Shown here: in pieces, positions 18,584 to 52,005 of the stretch
How the letters are laid out: each line of letters opens with the position of its first letter
Numbering within the stretch: the stretch's first letter is position 1
Assembly (NCBI GenBank): GCA_011939005.1
Contig: GCA_011939005.1_4858.1
DNA from: a phage
DNA: 64,000 nt
Strand: one strand, 5' to 3'
The notes under the pieces: generated by a model
The model's database searches: none
Told to the model about the DNA's origin: nothing
The model's input: the letters and a program-made list of their open reading frames with translations, nothing else
Program-made: the position numbers and the translations under genes

Positions 18584-19132
18584 TTAGACTTGCAGTAGTG
18601 TCCCCGAGTGAGTAATCGGGTCATTGTAGAACGCTTCACACTGGAGGCAAATGCCATCAATGTTCGGTTCTTCAGTTCGCGACCATATTGCCGCGCCACC
18701 TTGCAAAATCCATTCTCGACAGTTACGACCATAATCGTCGACAAGCAAATTACCTCGCGAGGCGTAAGCTTTCTTCTGCCCTGAACTTTCGGTGACGATG
18801 ACTTTGTCAGCTGGCACCCCAAAGTGCTTCATGAACCATCGTTGTTTTGAATCCACAACCAATTGGTGGTCGTAGTGATCTTCTGACCCAGAGGTGAGTA
18901 TTGCCCAACTGTCGCAAAGTCTATCTACCGTTTCCAGGATTCGCTCTACACCCTCAATTGGTTCGAGTTTGTAAAACAAGTCAGGATCGTTCTGATACAT
19001 CGAACGAACCAAACTACGACGGCGGAGTTCAGGTAATGCGTTAAACTCTTTAATCGTCATTCCGGGAAAATGTGTGGATAAAACGTATTTACGCCAGCGT
19101 GCAAAAACGCCATCGCTATCCAGATAAAACAT
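18584..19132 (-). CDS. HAD-superfamily 5'(3')-deoxyribonucleotidase-like protein (start at ATG 19132)
   Basis: N-terminal MFYLDSDGV (DxDGV motif I) and LLVDDYGRN (motif IV DD); SD aagga before ATG 19132; ORF-track start 19177 lacks SD. Confidence 0.55.
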   Translation of the reverse strand: MFYLDSDGVFARWRKYVLSTHFPGMTIKEFNALPELRRRSLVRSMYQNDPDLFYKLEPIEGVERILETVDRLCDSWAILTSGSEDHYDHQLVVDSKQRWFMKHFGVPADKVIVTESSGQKKAYASRGNLLVDDYGRNCREWILQGGAAIWSRTEEPNIDGICLQCEAFYNDPITHSGTLLQV

Positions 19133-19185
19133 CTTCTTGTCCTTATTTTGTTCCCCAACACATGAAACCAACGTCATGTAAAAAA

Positions 19186-19485
19186 TTACATCTGCTTTAT
19201 TGCCATATTCGAACGATACGGCTCAGTGAGTAGAAAGTAAGTACGGCGATAGTCGATTGTCACTCCAGCCTCTTTAATGTCGCAATAGAGTGCCATGATA
19301 TCTAGCGACGCGATTCCGGAGATGATGTTATTAATCTTGCGTTTTGTATCAAAACGTTCCGATAAGATTTCGGCAAGCACTTCTTTACCAGCCTTTCCTT
19401 GGATAGCGTAGATCGCTAACGCTTTCAGTTCTTCCGGCGTCAAACAACGAAGGGTCGGAGGTATTGCGATGTTAACGACCTTCAT
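19186..19485 (-). CDS. Hypothetical protein (about 100 aa; ATG 19485 preferred over GTG 19530)
   Basis: SD aggggg before ATG 19485. Confidence 0.45.
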   Translation of the reverse strand: MKVVNIAIPPTLRCLTPEELKALAIYAIQGKAGKEVLAEILSERFDTKRKINNIISGIASLDIMALYCDIKEAGVTIDYRRTYFLLTEPYRSNMAIKQM

Positions 19486-19540
19486 GCGTCCCCCTACTGT
19501 AGTGGTTTTTAGTTGTGATTTGCAGACCACGAACTAGGCA

Positions 19541-20170
19541 CTACGGTGAAACGACGTATTCGTTCAGTGCGTTATCAAAAGCAGTACGCGCAGTGGCGAC
19601 CGCCTCCGAGACCTTAACTTCACTGCGCTCCCAGTTGACGCTGATAATCAGTCGATAAAATTCGCCGGCTTTCAGCAGTTGACTGGTAGACAGGCGTACA
19701 TCTTGTCCGAAACTTAAGTGATAGACAAAAACATGGCCGCCGTTGCGAAGTTCTGACAACCGCATCTCGCCCAGGTAAATCGGTTTGATATCCCAGTTCG
19801 ACATGCGGTGTGGTACAATCCATACTTCACCCGCCCGATTCGGTTCCTGTGTCAGGTTGACCGAAGGCTGCGCTACATCACGTTCATCAAAACCGTAAAG
19901 ATACAATCGTGTGGGTATTTCGATTGCAGAGAAGTTGTGACGTGCACCCTTAATCGCTCGCTCTAAATCTACCGAGCAGCAAATCCTGGGCACGGTCTTG
20001 TCTTCATCTGGCGCGCACGAAAGTGGGATACGCGGCGAAAACGTCGGTATCTTACACTTGCTTAAATGCAGCGGCTGTTCAGTCAGTTTACGCAACGTCA
20101 ACTTTTTGGCGACGTGCGGCATCTGGCGTTCACACCACCGCTCTAATGACGGGTCGACATGTTCTGCCAT
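19541..20170 (-). CDS. Hypothetical protein, 209 aa
   Basis: ORF in operon context. Confidence 0.55.
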   Translation of the reverse strand: MAEHVDPSLERWCERQMPHVAKKLTLRKLTEQPLHLSKCKIPTFSPRIPLSCAPDEDKTVPRICCSVDLERAIKGARHNFSAIEIPTRLYLYGFDERDVAQPSVNLTQEPNRAGEVWIVPHRMSNWDIKPIYLGEMRLSELRNGGHVFVYHLSFGQDVRLSTSQLLKAGEFYRLIISVNWERSEVKVSEAVATARTAFDNALNEYVVSP

Positions 20171-20172
20171 TT

Positions 20173-20976
20173 TTACCAGCTCCTTACACCCATGCCCATT
20201 ACCCGCAGATTGGACACTTTCGGAGCCAGCTGCAGGTATTCCTGCGCGAGTTGCTGGAGAGCACCACGACGGGACTCAGTGGCAACAGCGCTGGTCGTTG
20301 TCGGATTGTACAGAATGTCTTCCAACACTTGACGACTGATAGGGCGGTCGACGTAAGTGCGAGTAGATTCCTGTGCCACTTTACTACCGCGTTGAATCGC
20401 AGAGTATTTGTTACAGATTTGCAGGCCATCTTCAATAACCCAGTCAAAGGTGACCAGTTTATCGATGCGGCGTACGATAGTCGTACCCAGACGACCTTCA
20501 CGAACGATAGCACGCAGTGAGAAACACACGTTCTGATGTGGGTTCTCTAGTGCTTCCGCTAGAAGCGGACCACGTTCACGGTTAGGTTTAATCCAACCCC
20601 AGATTTCCATTACCGGCAGACCGTTACACATCTGGTCGGTCGGCTTCACTTCTACTTCGCGGATGTGCATACACACGTTACGCGTTTCGATCCATTCGTT
20701 ACGTTCGATCCACTGGGCTTCGCTCATGCCTTGTTCGTATTGCGGATGGTCTTCTTCACCGAAGAGATTCCCCGCCAAAACTTTACGCATGAAAACGTTA
20801 GAGCGCTCGAAGACATGTTTTGACTCGTTATAGGCGTAGTAAATATTCTCAGAGTTGAAAATATTCAGTGCACCTAACAGGACGTAGTAATATCCGTCCG
20901 CATCTTTCTTTAGCGTTGCCCCTTTATTGACCCCAGCGAGTGCCACGCAGTTATAACGTAGTGACAAGTTTTCCAT
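20173..20976 (-). CDS. Hypothetical protein, 267 aa (position consistent with a prohead-protease slot in phiKZ-like gene order; not supported by motifs)
   Basis: ORF; synteny inference only. Confidence 0.5.
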   Translation of the reverse strand: MENLSLRYNCVALAGVNKGATLKKDADGYYYVLLGALNIFNSENIYYAYNESKHVFERSNVFMRKVLAGNLFGEEDHPQYEQGMSEAQWIERNEWIETRNVCMHIREVEVKPTDQMCNGLPVMEIWGWIKPNRERGPLLAEALENPHQNVCFSLRAIVREGRLGTTIVRRIDKLVTFDWVIEDGLQICNKYSAIQRGSKVAQESTRTYVDRPISRQVLEDILYNPTTTSAVATESRRGALQQLAQEYLQLAPKVSNLRVMGMGVRSW

Positions 20977-21038
20977 TGGTTTCCCCAGTTGTTATTACCG
21001 AAGCGGGTTATTGGGGACGTACAATAACCCTACCTCAG

Positions 21039-21767
21039 TTACCTCATATACAAATCCTCGAGTGGCTCTGCACGTACCGGATCGACCTGGAGTGCAGAAC
21101 GGATACCCTGTTTCAGTTCCACATCTGCAATCTTGGCCAACCGGGAAGTTTTGTTCAATGAACCTGAACGCAGCGGAATAAACTGCACCCGATTCATCAA
21201 ATCGCTGTCTTTTTTCAGGGTGTAGCGGAAATACGTCCGCGGGTCGCCAACCTTACGCTGTGTGTGGGCAGCATAACAGTCAGCGGTGATCTGGTCGTTA
21301 AAGACCGTAAAGCCGTTCCACGTCTTAGTGTCAGACAATAGCTCAGCGTCATCTACTGCGGTGTACCAGAAAGGCCGGTTTCCGAAGTCGTAGATGTACG
21401 AAGCGATGTTGTAGACTGGCGAGGAGAGCACTTGCAGCATTCGGTTGGGGAACACCACCGTGCCGGGGTCAAAACGGAACTCGTAATACGGCACACCCTG
21501 AACGTCAATTTCCTCAAACGCCGACGGGGTAATTTCAATGAACGTCGTGACGTTCGATACCCCGTAGGTTTTGCGGTCAGTGGAGATAGCGAAAATACCG
21601 ACGATTTCGACTTGCGAAGAAATTACCGCCAGCTCTTTAGCCACGAAGCCAACAGGGATGTAAATGTAACATCCCCCTTTGGTGATGGTGGCCGTGCCTT
21701 GGTCCACTAAATCTGCATGAATTTTCGTCGCGTCACGACGTGCTGTTTCAATGGCGCTCACGACCAC
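21039..21767 (-). CDS. Hypothetical protein, 242 aa
   Basis: ORF in operon context. Confidence 0.55.
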   Translation of the reverse strand: MVVSAIETARRDATKIHADLVDQGTATITKGGCYIYIPVGFVAKELAVISSQVEIVGIFAISTDRKTYGVSNVTTFIEITPSAFEEIDVQGVPYYEFRFDPGTVVFPNRMLQVLSSPVYNIASYIYDFGNRPFWYTAVDDAELLSDTKTWNGFTVFNDQITADCYAAHTQRKVGDPRTYFRYTLKKDSDLMNRVQFIPLRSGSLNKTSRLAKIADVELKQGIRSALQVDPVRAEPLEDLYMR

Positions 21768-21776
21768 CTCTCTTTA

Positions 21777-23252
21777 TTAAACTTTGCTCGGTACAGAAAT
21801 AACCACACCGCCACAAATCCAATCCAGGACGTAGTTAATCATCCAGTCGGTTGCCACCTCGTCAGGTTGACGGTTAGCAATCATACCACGATGAATATCC
21901 AGCATCAGCTTGGACAGTTCGTATTCGCCGAAGACCTCAGTCGCGGAGACTTTGATAACGAACTCAGTGATGTCTGTGGTGTCGGTTGTGAAGAACGAAT
22001 CGATGAAGCTTGCCGTTGATTTCTTAACGAACTCCGGCGTTGCTACCTGACCGTCCTGTCCACGCCAGAACAGTTCAGGATCGGTCGCATCGATAGCCAC
22101 GTTAAACGCTTGTTTCAGTGACTGGCGATTACGTGTTACCCAATTGCTGTCGAGTTTAGCACGCTGAATCGCAGAACGGTGCCCCCAGGCAGCGATGTAG
22201 TCTTTCTGTTTTTCCAACAATGAAGCTACACGCGTGGAGACATTGGTGTCACCTTCGTCCAGCTGGTAAATAGCACCCAGTAACGCTTCAACGCTACCGC
22301 CTTTTTCCAGATAGTCGTCCATCACTTCCTGACAGATATACACTTTCTTCTCAACGTTGTCGTATCCGAAGACAATGTTACCGGTCTTGATGCGGGTAAC
22401 GATGTTCTGGGTGTAGGCGTAAACCCAACCGATATAGCTGTAATGTAATGGCAGCATCTGTGCTTTCCACTGCCCGCTATTCAGACCAGAGTCTTTCCAC
22501 GGCATTTCCAGGTAGTAGCCAGAAAGCAGCATAAACAGAATGTTGCGTTTCAGGTTGTGTGGTGCCTGGTCGCTTACCGGAGAGAGCATGTTCCCTTCGA
22601 GCATGTTGCGAACGGCTTCGTTGATATTCCAACCCAGCGCATTCAACAGTTCTTTAACCAGATCGTCGTATGCTTTGCTGCCGGTTTCTGGCAGTTCGAT
22701 ATCGGCAGGGACGTTAGCTTTAACCGCAGGGTGTGTGGTACCGTTACCCAGCGGGTTTTCTACCGAATCAATTAATGCCTGTACCACCGGGGAGTTCAGC
22801 GCCGGGTCCATACCTGCAGGCACAAGTGCCCATTCTTCGCTAACTGCCTGGTTTTCAATACCCTGGTTGTTTTGGATAACCAGCTGAACAAACGGCTGAA
22901 TAACGTTACGAGCAAAGTCAAGCATACCCTGACAACGCTGGATAGCCATACGCTTCAGTTCAAACAGCGTTGGTTCGTGGTCTTCGACGTTCAGCGTTTC
23001 TGGACCCGCTGCCGTGTCCGCGATTACGGACGCTTCGCCTGTACCGGCCTGCGGCGTTTTCAGTGCAGTGATATCCGGCAGAGACTGGAAGAACTCTTCG
23101 TCGGTTATCTGCGTATCGAAAACGCTCTGCTGCGTAGTCGCTTTTGTCAGTAGACCAACAGGACTGTCAACGTCAGCTTCCAAACGAACCTGGTGTTGTT
23201 TCGCCAGTTTCATTGCGTTGGTGACAGCATTAAGTGAATATAAGTTGATCAT
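21777..23252 (-). CDS. Hypothetical protein, 491 aa
   Basis: Long ORF. Confidence 0.6.
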   Translation of the reverse strand: MINLYSLNAVTNAMKLAKQHQVRLEADVDSPVGLLTKATTQQSVFDTQITDEEFFQSLPDITALKTPQAGTGEASVIADTAAGPETLNVEDHEPTLFELKRMAIQRCQGMLDFARNVIQPFVQLVIQNNQGIENQAVSEEWALVPAGMDPALNSPVVQALIDSVENPLGNGTTHPAVKANVPADIELPETGSKAYDDLVKELLNALGWNINEAVRNMLEGNMLSPVSDQAPHNLKRNILFMLLSGYYLEMPWKDSGLNSGQWKAQMLPLHYSYIGWVYAYTQNIVTRIKTGNIVFGYDNVEKKVYICQEVMDDYLEKGGSVEALLGAIYQLDEGDTNVSTRVASLLEKQKDYIAAWGHRSAIQRAKLDSNWVTRNRQSLKQAFNVAIDATDPELFWRGQDGQVATPEFVKKSTASFIDSFFTTDTTDITEFVIKVSATEVFGEYELSKLMLDIHRGMIANRQPDEVATDWMINYVLDWICGGVVISVPSKV

Positions 23253-23542
23253 GCCTGACCCCCGTTTTTGGTGCTGATGGAATCCTGGATGCGACCAGTA
23301 ATACGCGCACCCACCATATCAGCGATGTCTCGTTTCAGCAAACGCTGATCGCCCATGCGGTCAGACAGGCCATTGCTGCCCTTCAGCAGTCCGTGAATAA
23401 TTTCGGTGGCCAATTCAACCGCATTGCCCAGAACAACAAAGTTCATGCGTTGCTGTGGGGAATAACCTTCCGTTTCCGGATTCGTGCTATTACGGCCCAC
23501 CGGAATCCCATGCTGCTGCTTGAGCGTATCTAAAATTCCCAT
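23249..23542 (-). CDS. Hypothetical protein, 97 aa
   Basis: ORF with SD ggag 7 nt upstream; GC hairpin 23567-23585 just upstream. Confidence 0.5.
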   Translation of the reverse strand: MGILDTLKQQHGIPVGRNSTNPETEGYSPQQRMNFVVLGNAVELATEIIHGLLKGSNGLSDRMGDQRLLKRDIADMVGARITGRIQDSISTKNGGQA

Positions 23543-23589
23543 TATTAACTCCGGAGTTTATTTACCGGGCGGGAGCGACCCGCCCTACA

Positions 23590-26500
23590 TTAGTTGATTT
23601 TAGCCGGCAAGGCTGGGACGTCTTCACCATCTAAGATGCGTCCGATATTCTCCCCACCACGATACCCGACAGCGTTGGTGGTTCCGATGCGCATGATAGA
23701 ACCTACGATACGTGCGTCGACGGAATCACGACCAAAGATAATGTCGAGTTCCTGCCCGTCTTCCGTTTTGTTGGTTCCATACATCACTTCCTGAACCGTC
23801 GTTTTCAGCTGGTTAGCAATAACCATCTTATCCGCTGCTGCCATCTCTACCCGGTGTGTGATGTAGAATCGGACACACAGGCTATTGTACGCTAACGGCA
23901 CCCCCTCAACACGAAAATCACCGTTGACTCGACCGTCCTTCGGCTCGTCACGTTTGAGAGCCAGCGCAGTCTTCCGACGTATACGGTCGTATTTACGAAC
24001 CATCTCCGCCAAAGACGGGGTCATATCTTCCACCTCGCCGTGGTAAACCACTTCGATTTTGTCGATAAACCCACGAACACCAGAGCGTGGTGCAAAGGAG
24101 CTTAACTCACGCAGCGTTTCCGCTGCTTCTTTACTGAACCCGCTCATATCGCCGGTCAGGTTGTCGGTGAAGGTGCATAGAATTGAATCCACGTCTACGT
24201 GGTCCCCTTCTTTTACCATCTCCAACAGGTTCTGGGTAAACGTCATTGTGACTTCTTTGAGTTTGGTAACATCGGCTTCAGCCTTAGCAGCGAACCGCTC
24301 ACTAATGGCGTTGGAGTCCTCAATTACTTCTTCCCCTTCAATCAAAGCGACAGTTGCCAGTATCCCGTTTTTAAAACTGACCTGCGTTGGATCGTAGATG
24401 TCTGGTTCAAAGTGTTGTTCGTTGTACGTGATAACGGCACCGGCAGGGAGTTTATCTCCGCGCTTCCATTTCGTTACCAGGGTGTGTGGGTAGTAAGTCC
24501 CTTCGTGTGGACCGAACCAACGGCCCAGTGGGAAAGCTTCTTCCTCTCCGTCGTCGTATTTGATTTTAACGTGGTCGTTAAGAACCTCCACAATCTTGCC
24601 TGGTTTATCGATTACGCGTGCGTGCTTCACAGAAGTACGGTGTGCCACGAACTTTTCTTGCTCGGTACGATACGGTGTGGTGGTTGCGCCAACACAACTG
24701 GTCGCAGAACCGAATTGAATCCCAACGAAGTTCTGACGCTTAGCATCGTCCATCAGGGTATCCGGCACCAAGCCATCAATAAATGACAGTGCCTCACCTG
24801 GCTTCAGTTTATCGAGGTCCTTTTTAAAGGTCGTGCCGTCCACGGTGTCGTAACGCGGATTGTTTGTTGCAAAGGCGGTGATACCTACGTCGCCGTTATC
24901 GACCGTGTTACCGGAGATAATCCCCAGGTCGCTCGGTTGGAATTCACGGGTACTGTATACCATGGTTTTGCGGTTACGACCACCTGTACCGCCCATGGTA
25001 ACGACATCTTTTTCTTTGATGTTCTGTACCGGGTTTGCGCCAGGAGCCAGCAGAACAGACGGGTCGGAGTTAATTGCACCCCACACCATGTCCTGCGTCA
25101 ACTCAAACTTACGATTTGAGTTAGGCGCGTTGTTGTAGTTACGCATCGCCCGCACCATCGCGGTGTAGATGTGATACGAAATACGTTGGTTCCCGATGAA
25201 CATCATTTCGTCACCGTTAATTTCCGGTAACGTGTGGTCCGTCTGCAGCAGTTCGTTAGAACGCTCCAGTAAGCCGATAAAGGTTTCCGGCTCGCCCATT
25301 TTCCTGAGGATACGCGCGTGCATGTCATCAACAAATGCGGTCCGCATCAGTTTCAGCTCTTTGATGTAGCGTGGTGTTAGCCCATCTGCATCGCGTAACA
25401 GGTTCAGATAAATGTCTTCCCGGTCAACTTCCGACTCGGTATACGTGGTAAAGTGTTTGATGTAACGGTCTAAGCCGTTGACAATCATCCTCTGTTGATC
25501 GTTCTCGCAGACAATTGCAATTTTCGCATCCTGGAGACGAATAATGGAGTCGAACTGACCTTTATCGATACGTTGTCCGACAGAGAGAACCTCGTAACTG
25601 ATACCAAAGTGTTTCAACATCCCGGTTAACCCGAGATAGTACGAAAACACAAAGCCCAGCGAGATTGATTTGCCCATCAGTGACAGTTCGGTCATTTCTC
25701 GTGGAGCCTTAGAGGTGTCCACGCCAAAGACCTCGGCGAGTGTACCCAGTGGTTCGGTCTTATCCTTATCCACTCGATAAAGCTGGGAGTTTTTATCCAT
25801 ACCGACGATGACATGACTCCGCGGTTTCTTCGCCACAGGTACCAGCTCGACACGGTCCGCGTCTGCCAGTTGCCCTTCGTTAAAGAATGCCGCTTTCTGT
25901 TTAATGTCAAAGTTCCATTGGTACCCAATTGCGTTGAACGCTGCTACACGACGTGCCACCTCGGTGTACTGACGCGGCAGTTTAGACAGCGGATCGAACA
26001 CATTCGCCAGTTTTGCATCAGTGATTTCGGTGTTCTTTGGATCGACCGCGCGAGTAATAATCGCATTAGTGAGCCAACGTCCGTAATCATTGACGACTTT
26101 ATCACTGCGACGGACAAAGTTCTTCCCGTAGGCAGTGGTTAACGCTACAGTATCGTGGGACACTTTACGGATAGGAAGATCAACGCGCTGACGACGCATT
26201 GTATATTCTACACCATTCGCAACCCAAGTACCGTCTTCGGTTAATGCAGGAATTGAGAAACGTACCGTGGTTGGTTCTCCGCCAATCGGCTGAATACGCA
26301 ACGTGTGGTGTTCGATATTCCCGGTAACGGAAATCTCTTTCTCGACAGTGTGATTGTGAATCGCTAAACCAAGACGTTGGGATGACGCTACTGCCCCCAG
26401 AATATCTTTCGGGAAGATTTCCTGGTTGTACTGACGAATGATTTGGTCGGTGGTATTTTCCGCCCAGGCTTCATCCGTAACTAAGCGTTCAATCTTCTTA

Positions 26501-27795
26501 GGCTCGGCTTTAACTTCGAGTTTCTTAGGATCGATGGTCAGACCTTCGCCGTACGTCTCTTTAGGATTGTACGGGTTGGGTAAGTTTACGAAACGTTTAG
26601 AAGATTCGTTCAGGAACTGATACGCTTTGGCGGTGACGCGGCCCGCTTCTGCCAGGCGCTCAACTTCCTGTTTAATCACAGCATCGTGTGGGATGGTGCG
26701 TTCTACGACGATGGTGGTTGGTTTGACATCTTCTTTCGGCGCTTCGATGACCAGATCTTCTTTCTCATCGAACTCATGATCGTTCAATATATCGTCAACG
26801 TTGTCGCTTTGTGTTGCTTCATCGTCGACGATATCGAGGGTTTCTTCCGGTTTACTGGCAACGGCTTCAACAACATCGTCGTCCTCTCCCAGATGTACGC
26901 GTTCGTCCCCTTCCGGTGTAACGAACTCGTCATCTTCGTAGTCGGTAGACGGCGGTGTGGTCATCACAGTAGTCAGTGTACGGTAGAACATTCTGCCCAT
27001 CTGCACGTCAGTCAAACGACCGCCGGCAGACTTACGCATTCTTTCAATTACACCCATGTTCATGGATGTAAAACCACCGTTGTGCGTGAAGATAAAGTTC
27101 ACACGTGACAGCTGGTTCATGTCCATACCGTCAAACAGGGTTGCTTGCTGATCGCCGTAAGCCCAACCGAACAGTTCCAGTAACCACAGCAGGTTAAAGT
27201 CCTTAAAGCGCTCCAGTTTGGTTTTAACACGATCGTTATACGTCATTTTAAAACGATCGAAAGAAGGCAGTACGTTACCCAGTTCGATGATGTAGTAGTT
27301 CTGACGCATGTACTCACGTGAGTCAGTTTTCATCTGGTTAGTTATCAGCAGCTGAATGTTGTGCAGACGTTCGTACCAGGACATCAGAGTATCAGGGTAG
27401 AAATAATGCGGCAGCATCGGGGTGTAGTTTTCGATGAGCAGCACTTTCGGATCTGAACGCACCACACCATCTTCAATCATGCGACGAATACGACGGTTGT
27501 TACGATGGTACTGGAAGATTTGACGTTCTTGGCCAACAACAGGTTTCTTACGCGGATGGCCAATAATGCCGTCTTCAGGTAGCTGGAAGTGATGGCGAAT
27601 CATCGCCGGTTTTTCCAGCTGGCCAAAACACGGTGTAGTTAACGGCGGCGCTAAAACCACCTGGTCTAAATCGATGGTGTGGTAGATAGAACCACGTGGG
27701 AGCTGGAGCTTCTCCAGCGGGATAATACGCGGACGACCGAACTCATCGGTCTTGCGCACGGTAAAGCGCTGGTTAAACTGTTTCAGAAAAATCAT
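23590..27795 (-). CDS. Multisubunit RNA polymerase beta-like subunit (N-terminal portion through flap/NFEDS-like region), 1401 aa
   Basis: By-eye similarity to E. coli RpoB recalled from memory: N-terminus TVRKTDEFGRPRIIPLEKLQL vs RKDFGKRPQVLDVPYLL; GGTGGRNRK vs GPGGLTRER; WKRGDKLPAGAVI vs VERGDVLADG; EDSNAISERF vs EDSILVSERV. C-terminal RpoB motifs absent. Confidence 0.65.
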   Translation of the reverse strand: MIFLKQFNQRFTVRKTDEFGRPRIIPLEKLQLPRGSIYHTIDLDQVVLAPPLTTPCFGQLEKPAMIRHHFQLPEDGIIGHPRKKPVVGQERQIFQYHRNNRRIRRMIEDGVVRSDPKVLLIENYTPMLPHYFYPDTLMSWYERLHNIQLLITNQMKTDSREYMRQNYYIIELGNVLPSFDRFKMTYNDRVKTKLERFKDFNLLWLLELFGWAYGDQQATLFDGMDMNQLSRVNFIFTHNGGFTSMNMGVIERMRKSAGGRLTDVQMGRMFYRTLTTVMTTPPSTDYEDDEFVTPEGDERVHLGEDDDVVEAVASKPEETLDIVDDEATQSDNVDDILNDHEFDEKEDLVIEAPKEDVKPTTIVVERTIPHDAVIKQEVERLAEAGRVTAKAYQFLNESSKRFVNLPNPYNPKETYGEGLTIDPKKLEVKAEPKKIERLVTDEAWAENTTDQIIRQYNQEIFPKDILGAVASSQRLGLAIHNHTVEKEISVTGNIEHHTLRIQPIGGEPTTVRFSIPALTEDGTWVANGVEYTMRRQRVDLPIRKVSHDTVALTTAYGKNFVRRSDKVVNDYGRWLTNAIITRAVDPKNTEITDAKLANVFDPLSKLPRQYTEVARRVAAFNAIGYQWNFDIKQKAAFFNEGQLADADRVELVPVAKKPRSHVIVGMDKNSQLYRVDKDKTEPLGTLAEVFGVDTSKAPREMTELSLMGKSISLGFVFSYYLGLTGMLKHFGISYEVLSVGQRIDKGQFDSIIRLQDAKIAIVCENDQQRMIVNGLDRYIKHFTTYTESEVDREDIYLNLLRDADGLTPRYIKELKLMRTAFVDDMHARILRKMGEPETFIGLLERSNELLQTDHTLPEINGDEMMFIGNQRISYHIYTAMVRAMRNYNNAPNSNRKFELTQDMVWGAINSDPSVLLAPGANPVQNIKEKDVVTMGGTGGRNRKTMVYSTREFQPSDLGIISGNTVDNGDVGITAFATNNPRYDTVDGTTFKKDLDKLKPGEALSFIDGLVPDTLMDDAKRQNFVGIQFGSATSCVGATTTPYRTEQEKFVAHRTSVKHARVIDKPGKIVEVLNDHVKIKYDDGEEEAFPLGRWFGPHEGTYYPHTLVTKWKRGDKLPAGAVITYNEQHFEPDIYDPTQVSFKNGILATVALIEGEEVIEDSNAISERFAAKAEADVTKLKEVTMTFTQNLLEMVKEGDHVDVDSILCTFTDNLTGDMSGFSKEAAETLRELSSFAPRSGVRGFIDKIEVVYHGEVEDMTPSLAEMVRKYDRIRRKTALALKRDEPKDGRVNGDFRVEGVPLAYNSLCVRFYITHRVEMAAADKMVIANQLKTTVQEVMYGTNKTEDGQELDIIFGRDSVDARIVGSIMRIGTTNAVGYRGGENIGRILDGEDVPALPAKIN

Positions 27796-27813
27796 ACATG
27801 TGCCTTATGGGTA

Positions 27814-29427
27814 TCATTTCAACAGCGCAGCAGTCGTTCTTTTAATCACGTTGTTAACCGGATTGATTTTGAAACTGCCGTCTGTTGCAAACCAGTAGTT
27901 TTTCGAACTGACCCACTTCCGATTTTCCTCGAGCGCTTCGGTTGACATCGGGCAGTTTGCTGAGCCGGTGTCACCATCGTAGTCACCACCCAATCCACCT
28001 AATCGGGATGGATGTGGTGCCATGGATTCCACAAAGGTTTTCACGGTACGGTCAGGGAAACTAATTGCACCCTTCTCTTTTAACGTGACCCAATCGTCTT
28101 CCAGTTCATGCAAATAGAGGGAAGAAGTGGTGGTCTCCAATCTTATGGTCGAGGAGTAAGTCGAACCGCGTCCCGTAACCGGATAACGCGTGATGAACGA
28201 GAAGTAGTCATTCCAAATATCGTAACCTGACAAATAGAGGAGTTCTGCTAAGCTCAGTCCGCGGACAAGCTTACGGTCACGTCCTTCCGGCAGGTCTTCA
28301 ATATCGTAAAAGATTTTGAAGCTGCGTTTGTCTTGGTAGATTAATGCCACGTAATGGTCCGGATCAATCATCAGCGGTTTATGTCGAAGCTCGCGCGCTT
28401 CCATTCTGTTGATGAGTGTTTCGATGCCATCGTCGGTAGTGAAAAGGTCATACACCCGCCCGGAGACTTCCAGGAACTCACGCTTGAGTGTTTTGGTGTT
28501 AACGCCGTATAAGTTGCCGTCCCCTGCCCGGATGTTACTGAGGTAACGTTCACGGATGTGGTATTGCGCCACAGGCAGTAATGCCTTCAGGGTTTGGTAC
28601 AAACCGATACGGGTATCCGTTGGACGAATCGCATCTTCGCGACCCATGACCTTGGAACCGGTTGAGAATGAAGACAGCACGTTACGCGTACCGTTCATTA
28701 ATTTACGTGACGTCACTTTACGACGTGCAAAACCACCTTTACCGTCTTGGATGTTGAAGAAGTACATCCAGATGTCATTAAAGGTTTGTTGGAGCTTCCA
28801 GCGAACCGGGTCAGTCAGTTCCGTTCGCGTACTGCGGTCGGGGATTGCACGTGCCAGAGAAATCAGACGGCGGTAGAGTCCGCCAATCTCTTCTTCTTGG
28901 TCGCGGCCATCCTGACGAATGACCAAATCACGTAATCCTGCAGGCAGAACCAGCACATAGCGGCTGAGACTGACCGGACGGAACTTATTGAAGAAATCGA
29001 CTGTCTCGTCGCGACGCATCGACTCGTTGCGTCCCGGAGTCAGTTGTTCGTAGTAGCGTAGGAAGAAGTTGAAGCCGGTGTCTGCACCTTTATCACTGGG
29101 CAGAGCCGGCTCGAAATCTTTTTCTTTCTCATTCCAGATAGCGAATCGCTTCCCGGAACAGATTTCTTCGTACAGCTGTTTCAGCTGGAACAGTGCCAAA
29201 CAAACGGTCGGCGAAATGATATCCAGTTTGATATCAATGTACGAGAACGTTGAGTCTCGTGCCTCGCTCCCTGTGAGGCCAAATATTTCGGTTGAATACA
29301 GTCCTTCAGGGTGAAAGTTTTTCGTCAGTCCCTGAAAGGTGTCTGTTGTTGTAACTGGTTTTAAATGCGACACCAGGGACTTGTTGACGTTTAACAAGTA
29401 AAAGTCAACCCAGTTTAGCTTTCTCAC
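27814..29427 (-). CDS. Multisubunit RNA polymerase beta-prime-like subunit, N-terminal fragment (537 aa), GTG start
   Basis: RYVLVLPAGLRDLV vs RpoC ILTVLPVLPPDLRPLV; GGFARRKVTSRKLMNGTRNVLSSFSTGSKV vs [21 protein letters not shown]; catalytic-site variant GGDYDGD (nt 27969-27986) vs NADFDGD; ORF ends about 55 aa after it; SD aggag before GTG. Confidence 0.8.
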   Translation of the reverse strand: MRKLNWVDFYLLNVNKSLVSHLKPVTTTDTFQGLTKNFHPEGLYSTEIFGLTGSEARDSTFSYIDIKLDIISPTVCLALFQLKQLYEEICSGKRFAIWNEKEKDFEPALPSDKGADTGFNFFLRYYEQLTPGRNESMRRDETVDFFNKFRPVSLSRYVLVLPAGLRDLVIRQDGRDQEEEIGGLYRRLISLARAIPDRSTRTELTDPVRWKLQQTFNDIWMYFFNIQDGKGGFARRKVTSRKLMNGTRNVLSSFSTGSKVMGREDAIRPTDTRIGLYQTLKALLPVAQYHIRERYLSNIRAGDGNLYGVNTKTLKREFLEVSGRVYDLFTTDDGIETLINRMEARELRHKPLMIDPDHYVALIYQDKRSFKIFYDIEDLPEGRDRKLVRGLSLAELLYLSGYDIWNDYFSFITRYPVTGRGSTYSSTIRLETTTSSLYLHELEDDWVTLKEKGAISFPDRTVKTFVESMAPHPSRLGGLGGDYDGDTGSANCPMSTEALEENRKWVSSKNYWFATDGSFKINPVNNVIKRTTAALLK

Positions 29428-29456
29428 TTTTAAGCTCCTGAATTGGAAGAAACATT

Positions 29457-32400
29457 ATGGCAAAAAGAGGCAAAGACGGTTTCGATGATATCGATTTAGA
29501 TAGACTCGACGACTGGGATGATTTCGGTGAACCACCCCGTCCCAAAGACGAGAAAAAACGAAGCCCGATACTCAGTACCCTGAATGTTGCCAGGAAGTCG
29601 GCGTTGTCAACTATCTGGCCAGAAGGGAAACGCGACCAAGTTATCCTCAAGGGGATGCCTAAGCCGGCAGCTGATGCATACGAGGGTTATCAGTCAGCGG
29701 CAGCTGCAGCAAAGGACATTTACGCCCATACGAAAGGGGAGCTTGAGAAGACCGAGCGCACGCTGAAGATGCAAGCGCGCCAACTCGGTCCGACGATGAA
29801 GAAATACTTGCCGGATGCAGTTACTAAGCGCTTCGACAAGTGGTCAAAATCTGACCAGTTAGATTACCAGAACTACGATCCGAATCAGGCATTGATGGAT
29901 CGTGAACTGGGCGACGTATTCTCAGGTGTGCCAAAGGACGCCGACGAACAACGTCAGCTGCAGGACCGCATGGTAGAGGATAAGCTCCGCGACAGCATCA
30001 AAGAGATGCGCGCGGATGCAATGCACCAAACCATGATTGGAATGGCGAAGGACATTAACCTGTTAACCGGGTTAAGCCGTGGGGTATTCTTAAACATCGA
30101 GCGTAAGAAACTCGAATTGCAATACCGTACCCTGTTCGCCATTCAAGACATCGTGAAGATGAAGCAGTCGGAGTTCGATCGTAACACGCCTGCTTTAGAA
30201 GCCATCGTGAAGAACACGGCGCTGCCAGACTACGCGAAGGAAGATTTCTCAGAAGTCCGTTGGGCAAACGTTAAACGCCAGGCTGCGGAATGGATGAACC
30301 CATTGCGTTATGCTGACGGGTTTATGGACATGATTCGCGAAAATACCAAGAAGAAAATTTCTGGTATATTTGGCGAAGGTCGTGGTTTGTTAGAGTCTGT
30401 TCTCGGCATGGGTGTTGAAGACGATTTCGGCATGAGCGATAGCTCTTCGTTGACTGCCGAACGTCGCAAAACAAATGCTCGAGATAAAGCAACTGCATGG
30501 GGTAGCGGATTCCTTGCGAAGAAACTACTCGGCCCACAAATCGAGAAACTCCAGAAATGGACTCGTGAGGAGATGGAGAAAAATCCAGAGGTCATGAAAC
30601 GCCTGCAGAAGGGCGCGTTCACCTTTGGTAATCTTTCCTCTATCTCGAACTCAGCTATCGCAGGCGAAACGCAAGGACCGTTGGCGGATTTGTTCCGGGT
30701 ATTGAATGAACTCGGTATTGTCCAACCGTTAAACCGTGAGAAAGCCTTCCTTGACGAACGTAATGGCGAAACGTTAAGCCGTTCGGCGAAATTTGACCGT
30801 AAAGCATATCTTAGCCTGGTTGAAGTTATTCCTGCCTGGCTGGCAGAGATTAACAAATCTGTTCGTCGGGGTTATGGCGAACATGCCGACCTGGAATACG
30901 ACATCACTAGTCGTGGGTTCGTAGACCGTAAAGTGGTCGGTAACCGCGTACGCAAGGCGGTTGCAAACGATGAACAACGCCTGCGTCTCCAAAATTCCAT
31001 TAACAGCACTGTGGATTTTGTTGACCGCGGCAAAACGCTCTCGCAGAAGGATCGACAGCATCTCGCCGACTATATCGAGTCGCGAGCCTCGCAGGGCCGC
31101 GCATTCGACGTAGAAGCGATTCTGAAAGACCCGATGCATCTTCATCGGTATATGCCAGGAAACGCCGCAGAACGCATTAAGGAAGCGTTACAGGGGCATT
31201 CTGATAGCTTGGTCGGCGGTAGCAACGAATTAAGTAACGAGCTGGCCCGCAAAATCTCCACAGTGCAGTCATCTATCACCCAACGTCAGGCAATTATCGA
31301 CGAGGCGGTGAATATTTACGGTGAGCGAGCATTGCGCGATGCGGGTATCTTTAACTACGACGCGAAGAGTGACACTTTCGGCGTGGATAAAGACCTGTCC
31401 GATCCCTATACCTTGTTTAATGACTTGGCGATGGGCAAGACACGCAGCGGGCGTGCATTGACTCGTGACCAGGAGATTCAACGTAAGCTGCAAAATGGTT
31501 CGGCGTTAGGCGACTATCTGCGCCGAATGAACCAAGGGGCAAGTGGTGGTGCCGATGACACGTCGTTGCCGCCGGCTTTACGTGGCGGTGGTAAAGGCCG
31601 CGGAATGTCGCCTCGGCAGTTAGCCGCAGTTCTCTACGGTGAAACCTCGACTAACTTTGTTGAATTGTTGAGTCAACGTAACCGTGGCGAAGAAGCACCA
31701 CGGAATAACTTTGACGGTATCATCGAAGCGATTCGGGGTAATAACAACAGTGACACCCTCCAGAAAATTCTGGAACACGTCAGAAGTATGGACGAAGAAG
31801 GGGTTCTCCTGGCTTCGTTAGCAGGGGGTGCTGGTTCTGGTGACGAAGAGATGGGACCACCTCGTCCTGGTGGTGGTAGCGGTGGCGGTAAACGCCGCCG
31901 TATTATCATCGGTGAGGATGGGCTTATTCGTCGTTGGGGCGGTGTGTTGTTCGACACTGCAGCAGGAATCGGTGGCTTTGCAAAACGTGGTGTTAAAGGT
32001 GCCTGGAATAAACTGAATCAGTTCGGTGGCTGGGCGCGCGGTAAAATCGCGGGGATGGGCGGCGGAGAAGGTCCTGGTTTCTTAACCCGGATGCGTGGCC
32101 TTATCAGCGGTAGTGTCCGTGGGGGCTTTGAAGCGGTAAGCTCTTTCGGTAAAGGATTGCTGGGTATCCGCGACGTTTACGATGACCACGGTAATGTTGT
32201 ACTGCAAGGTGCACGTCTGGAAGCTGGAGAATACTATCAGGTCATTGATGGTAAAATGGTTCAGCTGAAAACGCTGGACGACATCAAACTGGGGAGTGAT
32301 ATTGTTGACTCCGCAGGTAATCTGGTATTAGCAGCCGCTGACTTAGCCGCTGCGGGTAAACTCCGCTACTATAAAGGCGGGAAAATCCAAGCACTGACCC

Positions 32401-35400
32401 AAGGTCTGGCCAGTAAGATTGGCTTAGGCTTTAATAAGGTGGCTAAGCTACCGAAACGGTTCCTGGATTTCCTGTCACCGAAAGCGGGCAGCATCGTTGG
32501 TAAGATTAAGGACTGGCTGAACGAGATTCCGGAAGGCGAAGAAAAGACACGTCTCCAGAAAGCGTTCAACCGCGTAACGAGCTTACCGGGTAAAGTGCTC
32601 GGTTTTGCGAAACGTGGTGTCGACCGTCTGAAAGACATGATTACCGACAACCCACTGACGCGTTGGTGGAAAGGCCGTAAAGATGGTGGGGGTGGTGGTT
32701 TCAGTCTCTTCTCATCAACCGGCAAGAAAACCAACCACATCCTTATCCGTATCTATAAACTGTTGAACCAACGTTTACCGGGCGATCCGGAAGACGAAAG
32801 TTGGACAGAAGAAATGGAGAAGGGTGTCGGTGGCGGTGGTAGTACGATCGGCCGTGCAGTTCGCGGGGCGTATAATCGTGCGAAATCGTCGTTGTCTGAA
32901 CGTTTTGGTGGACGTTGGTCAAGAACAAAAGCGTTCTTTGGTCGTGGACGTGACCGCCTGCGTGGTTGGTTCAGTGGTTTCCGAGGCCGGGCTGGGGATA
33001 TGCTCGATGGATATCGTGGAGCACGACACGACATTGCTACACGTTACGAAGTTGAACGTCGGTTGGCTGGACGCGATGACGATGTTGCTGAGTTTTATCG
33101 CAGCCATTTGAACGCGAAAGGTGGTCTTTCTGGCCGTAAAGTCTACGGTGACGCGAAGGACGACCTTGAGACCGCGCGCGATGCAGCAGGTCGGGTTATC
33201 AACAAAGGGAAGAATGCTGCCAAGTCTGCAGGTGCAAGGTTATTCGAACGCTTGGACCGAATGATCGGCTTGCAAGAGATGTCATGGTTTAACACCATGC
33301 GCGAATCAGTATCCCGTGCAGGTGGTGACGATGGCATTATTCGTACCATGTTTGCGAAGTTCGGTAAACGTAACAAGCCACCTGAAAGTGATGAAAAACG
33401 CGACTACCTTAACTTCTTCAAACGTTGGCGTGAGAAACGTAAGGAGAAGAAAGAGAAAGCGCAGGGCTCCAAAGGGAAATCTGGCGGTCTGTGGGATATG
33501 GTGAAAGGCTTACCTATCATCGGTCCCATCGTCAGTATCTTGGGAACTGTGGGTAATATACTCGGTTCTATCACGAAATGGGGTGTGTTAAAACCAGTAG
33601 GTCTTTTAGGTAAGGCTGCGTGGAATGTCGGTAAGTTCGCAGTAACCCGTTTGGCGGCACCCGCGGTGTCCGCTGTGGCAACTGCGGCATCTGCCGTCGT
33701 GACAGCAGTGGGCTGGCCGGCAATTCTTATCGGTGGTGCGATCGCCGCGGCTGGTTACGCCGCGTACAGGATTGCAACGACTACCTATACCCAGTACCTG
33801 GATAAGATGCGTTTAGCTCAGTACGGTTTCCGTGATTACGATAAGTGGTCGTCGGACGACGGGGCGAAAGCGCGTTACTTAGAAGACGCATTGCGTGAGT
33901 ATGTGTCTTACGCGGAAGATGGCCAAGCCAGTCTCCGTGGGCTAAGTGGAAAAGACGTTCAGAAGTTAGCTGAAGGGTTCGGTATTAACGTTGAGGAAAA
34001 AGGCGAGATGTTGGCCTTCCAAGCGTTTATGCTTCAGCGCTTTATTCCGATTTATCTCCGCTGGATTACGGCACTGAAGTCAATGCCGAACAGTATCCAG
34101 TTGGCTGACGTCGGCGATGCGAAGAAAGTATCGAAAGAGGACATGCTGACTCTCTTCAACAAAATGAAGATGACTAAGGATGCAAAAGCGTTCTCTTCGT
34201 TAACAGACCCACGCAAAGTCAACCAAGGTTTCTTCTCGAAAGCTTGGGACGTTGTAACCTTTACACCGAAGGAGTTCTTGAGCGGTGAAGAGGTTATGGA
34301 AGTGCAGAATGAAGTCGAGCGTGCAATCAAGTCCAGAATGGACGATAAGAAAGCACGTAAGTACGGAATGGCACCGGCCGTGGAGGGGATTAAGTCCGCG
34401 GGCGTTGATGAAGCTATCAACAAACTTGGACAGTTGGATAACGAACGTAATAAAAATCTGGCGAAGGTAGAAGGTTGGGAAGACGGAACAGAGCAGGTTC
34501 AGATTCAGGTAGACTGGAATGCGGTGCTCGACCAGAAAGACATGAATGCGATGGAATCGGTGCGTTGGAAGACTTACGGCTTTACCACCATCGATAACGC
34601 CACCCGCACTTTGATCACGGTATTCGAGAAGAACGTCATCAAAGACATTGACGTGAAAACCGCAAGCTACAAAGGAGATTGGAAGAAAGCCATCGCCACG
34701 ATGGTTCCAGACGCTATCGGTACACCGAAAGAAGATCGTTTGAAACGGTGGTTCTTTGACCGTTTCTTACCGGTATTCATGACGTATTTGGTTGGGGTGA
34801 AGCGTTACCTGCCAACAGCCGATCCGCTGAACTTGAAACTGACCGGCGGCTACCTGTACGAAATCAGTCTGATGATGTCAACTGCCTACAGCCTGAAAGG
34901 TGGTATAAGACAGTCGGTGTGGGAAGTGAATATCAACCCATTAGGGGGTGAGGCTAACACGAACCCATCATCCATCAAAGCCGAACTGGAAACGCTGAAG
35001 CTGCTGTCAAAAGAAGCTGACCTTGCCGTGCGTAACATGATTAAAGCCATTAGAAATAATGGCAAGCGTGCGCGCTGGAAGGATCGTAACAAGAACCGCA
35101 GTTCTCTGGAAGTTACCGGTGAGGATGAAGAAGACTCGAACATCAGTTCGGGAGATTCTTTGTCATCTGACGGTGCTCGCGCCTCAGGCTACATTCCATC
35201 GGGTACGAGTGGTGGTGTGCCGGGTAACTTGGGTCAAGTCGTCGATGCGGTTGGTGGTGTGCGGAACTACGCTGCAATGACCACTGGTTCGTCTTCGATT
35301 AACCTGAGTGATGTGAAAGACGGTGATTATAAGTCACTGGCTGAAAAATACCCGATAGAAATGTTGGGTAGAAAGGGTGCGTTGAACGTTCCGAATATCA

Positions 35401-50664: not shown

Positions 50665-51340
50665 ACAGCGCAGTGTCCTTTACGTCAGTACCGACGTATT
50701 GAGCAAGAAAACGGGTGGACTCCTTAAAGGGGTTCACCTTATCTCTTTTTATTTGCGCGATTGCTTCTTCCGTTAATTCGCTGGTCAGCATACTCGGTCG
50801 GGTAATCGTAAAATCCGGAATCGGTTTCTGGAAATGGCTCGCGTGTTGTTCTATCCACGGATACCAATCGTACATTATCCAACCATCCCATGCAGAAGCA
50901 AGTCGTCCTGGTGTAAGATCGCTGTGAGGAATAACAACGACGTCTACTTGCACTTCGTTGTAGTAGTAGCGCAGTTCTTCCAAAAACGCATGACGTTCTT
51001 CATCATCGAGATCAGCGTATGGCCACAGGTTAAACGTTAAGACAGGTCGCTCGATAGGAGCGTGCATCTGTATCGTCATTAACATTGCCTGTACTTCGTT
51101 CTTTAGCGTAAGCAACATTTCTGTTGGCTGCGCGTTCTGCAACGCGCGTTTATCACGCTCCGCGAACTTTTTATTCCAGTCCTGAATTCCTACCACTTCG
51201 GCCCACGCATCCGTGAACCGCATCCGATACACTTCTAAATCAAGCTTCTCTAATACATCAGGCTGCAACACTTTCGCCCAACCAATTCGTGTATCGAAGA
51301 TTGTGTCGATATCGACTAAGAAACGGCGTCCTAATCTCAT
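50612..51340 (-). CDS. Hypothetical protein, 242 aa
   Basis: ORF; 3' end overlaps convergent gene. Confidence 0.5.
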   Translation of the reverse strand: MRLGRRFLVDIDTIFDTRIGWAKVLQPDVLEKLDLEVYRMRFTDAWAEVVGIQDWNKKFAERDKRALQNAQPTEMLLTLKNEVQAMLMTIQMHAPIERPVLTFNLWPYADLDDEERHAFLEELRYYYNEVQVDVVVIPHSDLTPGRLASAWDGWIMYDWYPWIEQHASHFQKPIPDFTITRPSMLTSELTEEAIAQIKRDKVNPFKESTRFLAQYVGTDVKDTALFSLRRHQQDDDSQTQTP

Positions 51341-52005
51341 TCCGGGCGTCCTAAGTTGTTACCGATGTGCATTGCTTTAAAGTACGAAGACCATGTACGC
51401 GGCGCTTTTGAACTGGTACGCTCAGCCCCTTCCAGGTTGATGCGACCTTTACCGGTTTGCCGTAGCGATTGATAGAACGCACGTTGTAACGTATCGTTAC
51501 CACCACGCGCCCACAGGAACTCCTGGAGCGTTGAGTCGTGTCCATCCGAGTACATGATGTACGCTTCTGGAAACGAAACACCCGAAGCTTTGGAAGGCCC
51601 TACTACCTGACCTGAGAGTTTATCGCGGACTTTATCGTTCTTCGCCACCGCCATTTTCTTCTCATGCATCTGCGTCTGGCGACGTGCAGGCAGGCGGAAG
51701 ACTAAATGGGGGTAACGGGTACGCTGTAGGATACCGGTTTTCGGTTCCGTGAGCCACAGGCGCTGACACAAGCTCAGTCCCATCGCTTCGCAAATTTTAA
51801 TATTGCGCATATGGTCAATTTTGACCTTGCCACCAGTTGGGTTGTAAACAGGCAACCCTTCGCGCAGACGATTGAACTCTTCGTCAGACATTCGCGAGAA
51901 AGCGCGCTTGGCAGCTTCCGCGTTAATCCCGGTCGGGTCAACTAAGTTCAGTAACTGTAAAGCATAAGCTTCTGCTTTTTTTCGCCGTGCCGGGTCTAAT
52001 CTCAT
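51337..52005 (-). CDS. Hypothetical protein, 222 aa
   Basis: ORF. Confidence 0.5.
   Translation of the reverse strand: MRLDPARRKKAEAYALQLLNLVDPTGINAEAAKRAFSRMSDEEFNRLREGLPVYNPTGGKVKIDHMRNIKICEAMGLSLCQRLWLTEPKTGILQRTRYPHLVFRLPARRQTQMHEKKMAVAKNDKVRDKLSGQVVGPSKASGVSFPEAYIMYSDGHDSTLQEFLWARGGNDTLQRAFYQSLRQTGKGRINLEGAERTSSKAPRTWSSYFKAMHIGNNLGRPE

Follow-up and report, generated by a model that had tools for sequence, protein, structure and literature searches.

The RNA polymerases (RNAPs) of jumbo phages lack homologs of alpha and omega (PMC13282480; PMC7598289). Their virion-packaged form (vRNAP) consists of five subunits, and in both the vRNAP and the second, non-virion enzyme (nvRNAP) the beta' chain is split after its double-psi beta-barrel (DPBB; PMC7598289). 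Cyanobacteria and plastids also split beta', into RpoC1/gamma and RpoC2, downstream of this barrel (PMC7598289). In the vRNAP form, the alpha+beta insert that precedes the catalytic loop is described as longer than in the nvRNAP (Iyer et al., 2021). Once injected, the vRNAP transcribes the early genes (PMC13282480). In SPN3US, mass spectrometry found the vRNAP subunits gp240 (beta'-N) and gp241 (beta-N) in virions and in tailless heads, and a lethal amber mutation of gene 241 yields particles devoid of gp42, gp218, gp240 and gp244 (Thomas et al., 2016, J Virol; PMC5105663). The same study names phiKZ ORF178 as the homolog of gp241.

The window analysed here (the whole stretch of DNA, 64,000 nucleotides) comes from an SPN3US-like Seoulvirus, as judged by 98-99% nucleotide identity in DNA comparison. 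Its closest DNA relative is Escherichia phage vB_EcoM_EC001 (99.1%), and the source, a close relative or isolate, need not be SPN3US itself. Two minus-strand ORFs of 537 and 1401 aa, which exist exactly as given in the initial annotation, correspond to SPN3US_0240 and SPN3US_0241, and their products are 100% identical to gp240 and 98.9% identical to gp241 at the amino acid level. The 537-aa ORF comes first and the 1401-aa ORF starts 18 nt downstream. Gene order and neighbours are those of SPN3US and include a gp239-like 2373-aa SLT protein, gp242-244 and a gp245-like S80 prohead protease. We conclude with high confidence that the two ORFs encode the beta'-N and beta-N subunits of a virion-packaged multisubunit RNAP from a jumbo phage that is SPN3US-like and related to phiKZ. 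The identities bear out the earlier claim of split, highly diverged beta and beta' genes of a phiKZ-like jumbo phage, and the presence of near-identical SPN3US subunits in virions and tailless heads upholds the suggestion of a virion-packaged enzyme. The identity, virion location and essentiality of gp240 and gp241 were published in 2016, and the finding is correct and already known; since the genes are near-identical copies of the published ones, annotation is gained and no new biology. The features on this reading are:

23590..27795, minus strand: vRNAP beta-N subunit gene, 1401 aa, ATG start (ORF; ortholog of SPN3US gp241 / phiKZ ORF178)
26506..27795, minus strand: phage-specific N-terminal extension of beta-N, residues 1 to ~430 (upstream of the hhalign match to E. 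coli beta)
23593..26505, minus strand: RpoB-homologous part of beta-N, residues ~431-1401, corresponding to E. coli beta 12-1134 (hhalign)
27814..29427, minus strand: vRNAP beta'-N subunit gene, 537 aa, GTG start (ORF; ortholog of SPN3US gp240 / phiKZ gp180)
27970..27984, minus strand: catalytic Mg2+-binding motif DYDGD, residues 482-486, in the beta' DPBB (position and alignment)
29435..29439, minus strand: Shine-Dalgarno AGGAG, 7 nt before the GTG start of the 537-aa ORF (direct sequence reading)
51337..52005, minus strand: vRNAP beta-C subunit gene, 222 aa (ORF; ortholog of SPN3US gp218)
21039..21767, minus strand: candidate vRNAP beta'-C subunit gene, 242-aa ORF (literature assignment of SPN3US gp244)

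The AGGAG with its 7-nt spacer favours the 537-aa start over the 519 aa given for gp240 in Table 5 of PMC5105663. The 537-aa protein matches PHROG 2986 ("RNA polymerase beta subunit") with residues 3-536 aligned to positions 2-538 of 539 (E 2.9e-238), and homologs are present in 325 phage records, including phiKZ gp180 (tblastn, 33.6% identity, E 4e-65). The sequence GGDYDGD begins at residue 480, and DYDGD aligns with NADFDGD of chloroplast beta'. D-x-DGD (x being F, Y or H) is conserved in 28 of the 29 members of the beta'-N family; the 29th is a truncated sequence. The initial annotation had placed the end of the chain about 55 aa after the motif; it does end soon after the DPBB, the exact count being 51. 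Tails of 51-65 aa are found in 27 of the 28 motif-bearing homologs (92 in one), and AR9 nvRNAP beta'-N likewise ends ~40-45 residues after its DYDGD motif. The phage beta'-N ends ~50 aa after DxDGD, whereas plastid RpoC1 (chains of 677-688 aa with the motif at ~485-495) extends ~150-200 aa beyond its motif.

When the 537-aa family profile was searched against the PDB, AR9 nvRNAP beta'-N (7S00/7S01 chain d) was the best match (E 1e-12), followed by cellular beta'/gamma chains (5e-10 to 5e-7), in alignments that cover LPVLPPELRP/INELYRR and DFDGD. The AR9 chain is also the best solved structure by fold (4e-15), although it is a shorter chain (426-448 aa) of the paralogous nvRNAP, with 13-14% identity. 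The AlphaFold model of the 537-aa protein (pLDDT 80.8) has a strand-rich barrel region at 409-491, with the catalytic loop at pLDDT <50. The best 50 of the 583 PDB chains that Foldseek matched to this model at E<=1e-3 are all beta', gamma or AR9 beta'-N (E 4e-15 to 4e-11, probability 1.00). Profile and fold agree with the proposal that the protein represents the N-terminal part of RpoC up to GGDYDGD. An hhalign alignment of the family with E. coli RpoC (-mact 0.1) placed NADFDGD at query residue ~335 and ended at RpoC 696, probably because ~120 additional residues separate the RNVLS region from DYDGD. Since this greedy alignment misplaced the catalytic loop, its endpoint was discarded and the local hmmsearch alignment of DFDGD was used instead.

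The 1401-aa protein matches PHROG 3148 ("RNA polymerase beta subunit") with residues 1-1391 aligned to positions 1-1423 of 1424 (E 0). Similarity to RpoB had been thought to run from the N-terminus. It begins only at about residue 430, where hhalign aligns residues 430-1390 with E. coli 12-1134 (probability 93.5%). In the PDB, the family profile finds Thermus beta in four collinear segments (E 7e-12). The NFEDS-like motif, here IEDS, lies at 1158-1161, with IEDSNAISERF aligned to FEDSILVSERV (hhalign; E. coli 812-822), and DKMVIANQLK lies at 1322-1331, with ADKMVIANQLK aligned to GDKMAGRHGNK (hhalign; E. coli 1063-1079). The beta DPBB is located in the RpoB-homologous part, with E1159-D1160 and K1323/K1331, and these four residues are invariant across 17 beta-N homologs. 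The description of beta-N as lacking the C-terminal RpoB motifs therefore holds for the last ~210 residues, which are absent, but not for the GDK...NK lysine motif, which is present. An AlphaFold model of residues 390-1401 (pLDDT 80.9, pTM 0.80) was matched by Foldseek to 436 PDB chains at E<=1e-3; the best 50 consist exclusively of bacterial beta chains, at E 1e-23 to 4e-21 and TMq 0.42-0.50 over ~1100 aligned columns. Profile searches and structure prediction, both proposed in the initial annotation as checks, thus gave RNAP homology for both proteins, a modelled barrel in beta'-N and folds that match beta' and beta chains.

The phage subunits share with bacterial RpoC and RpoB the two-DPBB core, DxDGD, the ED and lysine motifs of beta, and conserved regions in collinear arrangement. 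They differ in that the phage enzyme comprises five polypeptides, compared with two or three in cellular and plastid RNAPs, and in the ~430-aa N-terminal extension of beta-N, which is found only in the phage and not in cellular beta. The extension has no match in Pfam or the PDB and no E. coli beta counterpart by hhalign. Within the family its conservation is similar to that of the catalytic core, except for an acidic linker at ~281-355, which is poorly conserved.

The initial annotation had placed the missing halves of both chains outside the window. The split is into five pieces and not four (PMC7598289), and of the remaining ones the beta-C gene and a candidate beta'-C gene lie inside; beta'-M (gp42) has no match within the 64-kb window, in line with the claim. 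The 222-aa beta-C protein is 99.5% identical to SPN3US gp218 and matches PHROG 3233 "RNA polymerase beta subunit" (E 5e-93). By hhalign, residues 5-218 of its family profile align with E. coli beta 1131-1339 at E 9e-5 and with a probability of 59%, such that the chain is tiled by the 1401-aa protein, ending at ~1134, and the 222-aa protein, spanning 1131-1339. An hmmsearch of the PDB with the beta-C profile did not find beta; the matches were designed repeat proteins only and were taken as spurious. The 242-aa ORF product is 100% identical to gp244, for which the annotation gives 240 aa with an internal GTG as the start, and falls in PHROG 2926 "virion structural protein". The assignment of gp244 as beta'-C comes from a co-dependence phenotype and from unpublished HMM work cited in PMC5105663. 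Our profile tests did not reproduce it: the gp244 family (17 homologs) matched no RNAP chain in the PDB, the best hit being the lambda P helicase loader (E 0.0023), and hhalign gave a probability of 0.1% against E. coli RpoC. We retain the ORF as a candidate from the literature.

One alternative is that the two proteins belong to the nvRNAP, which acts after infection on middle and late genes. Both enzymes are built from split beta and beta' fragments and both split beta' after the DPBB. It is moreover the AR9 nvRNAP beta'-N that best matches the 537-aa family in the PDB, where RNAP matches in the profile searches were confined to the AR9 nvRNAP and cellular enzymes and no vRNAP structure competes. 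We nevertheless consider this very improbable, as it is the identical or near-identical gp240 and gp241 that were seen in SPN3US virions and heads, whereas the paralogs gp23, gp34 and gp35, which are closer to E. coli RpoB/RpoC, are encoded elsewhere in the SPN3US genome and have no match within the window. Comparison by hhalign of the vRNAP family profiles with the single SPN3US gp23, gp34, gp35 and gp42 sequences gave weak matches (E at least 0.012). The genomic setting also speaks for the vRNAP: in phiKZ, which has another host, belongs to another genus and shares only ~30-34% identity, the RNAP genes likewise lie beside a giant SLT-domain virion protein, the ortholog gp180 adjoining the gp181-like SLT protein.

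A second alternative, that the proteins are decayed RNAP relics which now serve only as structural or inner-head proteins without polymerase activity, is no more probable than the first. It draws on their extreme divergence (no Pfam match, ~12-14% identity to cellular subunits), on G-G-D-Y in place of N-A-D-F, and on the literature, in which we found no report of an enzymatic assay or activity, or of a solved structure, for a phiKZ-type vRNAP. Against it, the three catalytic aspartates, the beta ED and both lysines are kept in homologs down to 22-37% identity, which argues for selection for catalysis, as such conservation would otherwise not be expected. In addition, phiKZ-like infection is rifampicin-independent with immediate early transcription (PMC13282480), and gene 241 is essential (PMC5105663). 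We infer that this particular vRNAP is catalytically competent.

The homology is visible only by family profile or fold. No RNAP family in Pfam was found at E<=1 for either protein, the gathering thresholds of RNA_pol_Rpb1_* and RNA_pol_Rpb2_* were not reached, and single-sequence phmmer searches of the PDB gave beta' at E 0.4-0.9 only and nothing for beta, such that family profiles were needed; the proteins are therefore distant homologs and not members by curated Pfam thresholds. The Foldseek matches have ~12-14% identity to cellular subunits, with large rmsd and global TM-scores of 0.25-0.50, modest values that are expected for isolated multi-domain subunits. That the resemblance is a coincidence of short motifs in unrelated large virion proteins, for which the non-significant single-sequence searches might speak, has next to no probability and is refuted, at the level of sequence profiles and models, by E-values of 1e-12 and 7e-12 with several collinear segments and by full-length fold matches to 583 beta' and 436 beta chains at E<=1e-3, the best 50 of each being exclusively of the expected kind.

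With the vRNAP reading, the locus would contribute to a bacterial-type two-barrel RNAP whose beta' chain is made up of beta'-N, beta'-M and beta'-C and whose beta chain is made up of beta-N and beta-C. The active site would form at the interface of the beta' DPBB of the 537-aa protein and the beta DPBB of the 1401-aa protein, with D482, D484 and D486 of the former predicted to chelate the catalytic Mg2+ and the latter bringing E1159-D1160 and the putative RNA-contacting lysines K1323 and K1331. The 222-aa beta-C would add the ~210 C-terminal residues of beta. By analogy with SPN3US and phiKZ, from whose literature virion presence, essentiality, co-dependent packaging, ejection and early transcription are carried over, the subunits would be produced late and assembled before packaging, prohead entry would depend on the 1401-aa subunit, and the enzyme would be ejected along with the DNA and carry out early phage transcription independently of the host RNAP. 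These would be subunits of a highly unusual RNAP, bacterial in type yet without alpha, omega or sigma, made of five polypeptides, packed into the capsid and injected with the DNA, and a packaged polymerase of this kind frees infection from the host RNAP.

An extension of ~400 residues in gp241 was proposed to target the complex to the head (Thomas et al., 2016; PMC5105663); we found no test of this idea in the literature. A tentative suggestion, which we regard as rather doubtful, is that the vRNAP has two specific modules with so far unrecognised roles, the beta-N extension carrying the polymerase in and out and beta-C acting as a docking domain. The role of the extension is presumptive: its ~430 residues could be the element by which the polymerase, already assembled, enters the prohead and later leaves through the tail. 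The small beta-C may be a portable docking domain. In uncultivated relatives, the beta-C module is found at the extreme C-terminus of 1400-2400-aa SNF2-family helicase proteins, some of which also carry GNAT, HD or DUF5662 domains, and this would tether a RapA-like remodeller physically to the polymerase in some lineages. Two long proteins with the module, P0234 and P0218, were considered as unsplit beta-N plus beta-C and rejected; they have no BLASTP similarity to the 1401-aa protein and are SNF2-helicase fusions.

A scan of positions 19000-30500 for sigma-70 promoters and intrinsic terminators gave nothing beyond the shuffled expectation. On the plus strand, ORFs of at most 195 aa are nested within the two long, conserved minus-strand genes.

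The two genes encode already known subunits of the virion-packaged RNA polymerase (vRNAP) of jumbo phages. The initial annotation, which had read them as split β' and β genes of a phage multisubunit RNA polymerase, is right at its core and is corrected here in three details. Both ORFs were called at exactly the positions it gave. The features are as follows.

20173-20976, minus strand: Peptidase_S80 prohead protease, SPN3US gp245-like (Pfam, E 1e-84)
21039-21767, minus strand: gp244-like ORF (match to SPN3US gp244)
23590-27795, minus strand: 1401-aa ORF, β-N (ORF call)
27814-29427, minus strand: 537-aa ORF, β'-N, with GTG start (ORF call)
29374-29427, minus strand: extra N-terminal stretch of the 537-aa start relative to a 519-aa start
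29428-29456: gap of 29 nt between the divergent starts of the 537-aa and 2373-aa genes
29457-36578, plus strand: 2373-aa SLT protein, SPN3US gp239 homolog (Pfam and PHROG)
51337-52005, minus strand: 222-aa ORF, β-C, gp218-like (99.5% identity to gp218)

Megablast of the region returned 63 phage records, 42 of them with query coverage of 80% or more; the 34 records at 95% identity or more all come from jumbo phages of the SPN3US type that infect Salmonella, Escherichia or Proteus. The closest DNA match is vB_EcoM_EC001 (99.1%), and SPN3US matches at 98.1%. In SPN3US they correspond to SPN3US_0240 and SPN3US_0241, with products 100% (gp240, 537-aa protein) and 98.9% (gp241, 1401-aa protein) identical to those of the window; the phiKZ counterparts are gp180 and ORF178, respectively. 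In SPN3US, gp240 is the vRNAP β'-N, gp241 β-N, gp218 β-C and gp42 β'-M, and gp244 is the candidate β'-C (Thomas et al., 2016; PMC5105663). Among the homologs, records from the Salmonella phages SPFM (P0101-P0104, P0155-P0158 and P0186-P0191) combine high bit scores with odd lengths, and their best local alignments span only 3-25% of the query despite those scores. Low coverage together with odd lengths suggests that several of them are frameshift-laden assemblies and not real variants.

RNA polymerase identity was settled by family profiles, which gave significant matches where Pfam and phmmer were marginal or empty. Pfam reported no RNA polymerase domain in either protein even at E ≤ 1, and phmmer against PDB found no β match for the 1401-aa protein and marginal plastid β' matches for the 537-aa protein (E 0.4-0.9), the latter coinciding with the LPVLPPELRP/INELYRR and DFDGD motifs. 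For β'-N, a profile built from 29 homologs (lowest identity to the 537-aa protein 37%) matched the β'-N chain of the AR9 non-virion RNA polymerase (nvRNAP) at E 1e-12 and dozens of bacterial, cyanobacterial and plastid β'/γ chains at E 5e-10 to 5e-7, with the DFDGD loops aligned motif to motif. The corresponding β-N profile, from 17 homologs of the 1401-aa protein, matched Thermus β at E 7e-12 in four collinear segments, beginning at residue 117 and reaching the GDKLANRHGNKG lysine motif (822-880). The initial annotation had also made its reading depend on the predicted fold, and among the 50 Foldseek matches listed for each model only β'/γ or β chains occur. For the 537-aa protein, the AlphaFold model (mean pLDDT 80.8, low confidence at the catalytic loop itself) has a strand-rich barrel region at 409-491; all 50 listed matches are AR9 β'-N or cellular β'/γ (E 4e-15 to 4e-11), and 583 PDB chains match at E ≤ 1e-3. 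For residues 390-1401 of the 1401-aa protein (pLDDT 80.9, pTM 0.80), the 50 are all bacterial β, at E 1e-23 to 4e-21 over about 1100 aligned columns. TM-scores were modest for both models (0.25-0.50), as expected of isolated multi-domain subunits.

In the 537-aa protein, GGDYDGD begins at residue 480 (DYDGD at 482-486) and 51 residues follow, so that the β' fragment does end soon after the catalytic motif, as had been noted by eye. D-x-DGD, with x being F, Y or H, is present in 28 of the 29 homologs, the exception being a truncated sequence, and is followed by 51-65 residues in 27 of the 28 and by 92 in the remaining one. This near-constant tail marks the split site as a family trait, not an accident of this genome; a β' split just past its double-psi beta-barrel (DPBB) is common to vRNAP, nvRNAP and cyanobacteria (Sokolova et al., 2020; PMC7598289). 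From the RNVLS region to DYDGD (residues ~254-481) the protein has ~230 residues, compared with ~110 in E. coli β', so that the stretch ahead of the catalytic loop is longer by ~120 residues. This fits the vRNAP-specific α+β insert of Iyer et al. (2021). The extra residues probably also caused a wrong register for the loop in the global hhalign alignment, whose endpoint was discarded.

The 1401-aa protein had been thought to match RpoB from its N-terminus and to stop at the NFEDS-like region; neither holds. In hhalign, residues 430-1390 pair with E. coli β 12-1134 (probability 93.5%), and FEDSILVSERV and GDKMAGRHGNK of E. coli are correctly paired with IEDSNAIS at 1158 and DKMVIANQLK at 1322. 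The whole β DPBB, including both lysines, is thus present and the end corresponds to E. coli β ~1134. E1159, D1160, K1323 and K1331 are invariant across the family. Residues 1 to ~430 form a phage-specific extension, in which ~281-355 are an acidic linker of low conservation.

The missing pieces had been placed outside the window. This applies to β'-M, as SPN3US gp42, like gp23, gp34 and gp35, has no match within it, but the gp218-like β-C and the gp244-like ORF both lie inside. The 222-aa protein belongs to PHROG 3233 ('RNA polymerase beta subunit'), and its family profile pairs with E. coli β 1131-1339 (hhalign, E 9e-5). It resumes exactly where the 1401-aa protein ends, and the two tile β. 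Counting downstream on the same strand, the gp244-like gene is the third after the 1401-aa gene. Its family hmmsearch found no RNA polymerase chain in PDB, and hhalign against E. coli RpoC gave a probability of 0.1%, with no detectable β' similarity. The best PDB match of the protein, the lambda P helicase loader (E 0.0023), is probably spurious. It remains a candidate β'-C on account of its co-packaging phenotype and of HMM results that are unpublished.

Four steps make up the best-supported picture. Five polypeptides, the number reported for the vRNAP core (Sokolova et al., 2020), would co-assemble into a two-barrel core without α, ω or σ. The active centre would combine the β' barrel of the 537-aa protein with the β barrel of the 1401-aa protein, and we infer that the enzyme is catalytically competent. 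Entry into the prohead would depend on the 1401-aa subunit, and the complex would be ejected with the genome for early transcription independent of the host enzyme. The present analysis shows the homology, the conserved residues and the tiling of β; virion location, essentiality and timing are taken from the SPN3US and phiKZ literature. All five proteins have been found in SPN3US virions and tailless heads; gene 241 is essential, and its amber-mutant particles lack all other vRNAP subunits, from which the authors concluded that the complex is likely assembled before packaging (Thomas et al., 2016). The ~400-residue N-terminal region of gp241 without RNA polymerase homology was proposed to target the complex to the head (Thomas et al., 2016), a role that the extension in the window may share. 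A recent review describes injection of vRNAP and transcription of early genes in the early-infection vesicle (PMC13282480, 2026).

The 1401-aa gene starts 18 nt past the stop of the 537-aa gene. For gp240 a length of 519 aa has been published (PMC5105663, Table 5). The longer 537-aa start looks correct, given a strong AGGAG 7 nt 5' of the GTG and a PHROG profile spanning residues 3-536. The S80 protease gene directly follows the gp244-like gene on its downstream side and shares a minus-strand gene run with those of the vRNAP. Residues 1984-2072 of the 2373-aa protein form an SLT lytic transglycosylase domain (Pfam, E 6e-10). The protein, which also hits PHROG 3201 ('tail fiber protein'), is probably the counterpart of phiKZ gp181. 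Its ATG at 29457 (plus) and the GTG at 29427 (minus) diverge. Promoters for both genes cannot fit into 29 nt, and would have to lie within the adjoining genes or a long way upstream; between 19000 and 30500, sigma-70-like sites were not enriched over shuffled expectation.

The 222-aa β-C module has 585 relatives, mostly stand-alone proteins of ~220 aa. Of the best 150, about 25 are far longer, several with 1400-2400 aa, and carry the module at their very C-terminus. All four 1400-2400-aa carriers scanned with Pfam (metagenomic records P0218, P0224, P0234 and P0260) contain SNF2-rel_dom and Helicase_C, and individual members of the four also have GNAT, HD or DUF5662 domains. Two of these four were compared with the 1401-aa β-N and showed no similarity to it. 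Iyer et al. (2021) used phyletic and neighbourhood data to propose that an SNF2 helicase acts with phage RNA polymerases in the manner of RapA; to this idea the SNF2-β-C fusions would lend direct 'Rosetta-stone' support.
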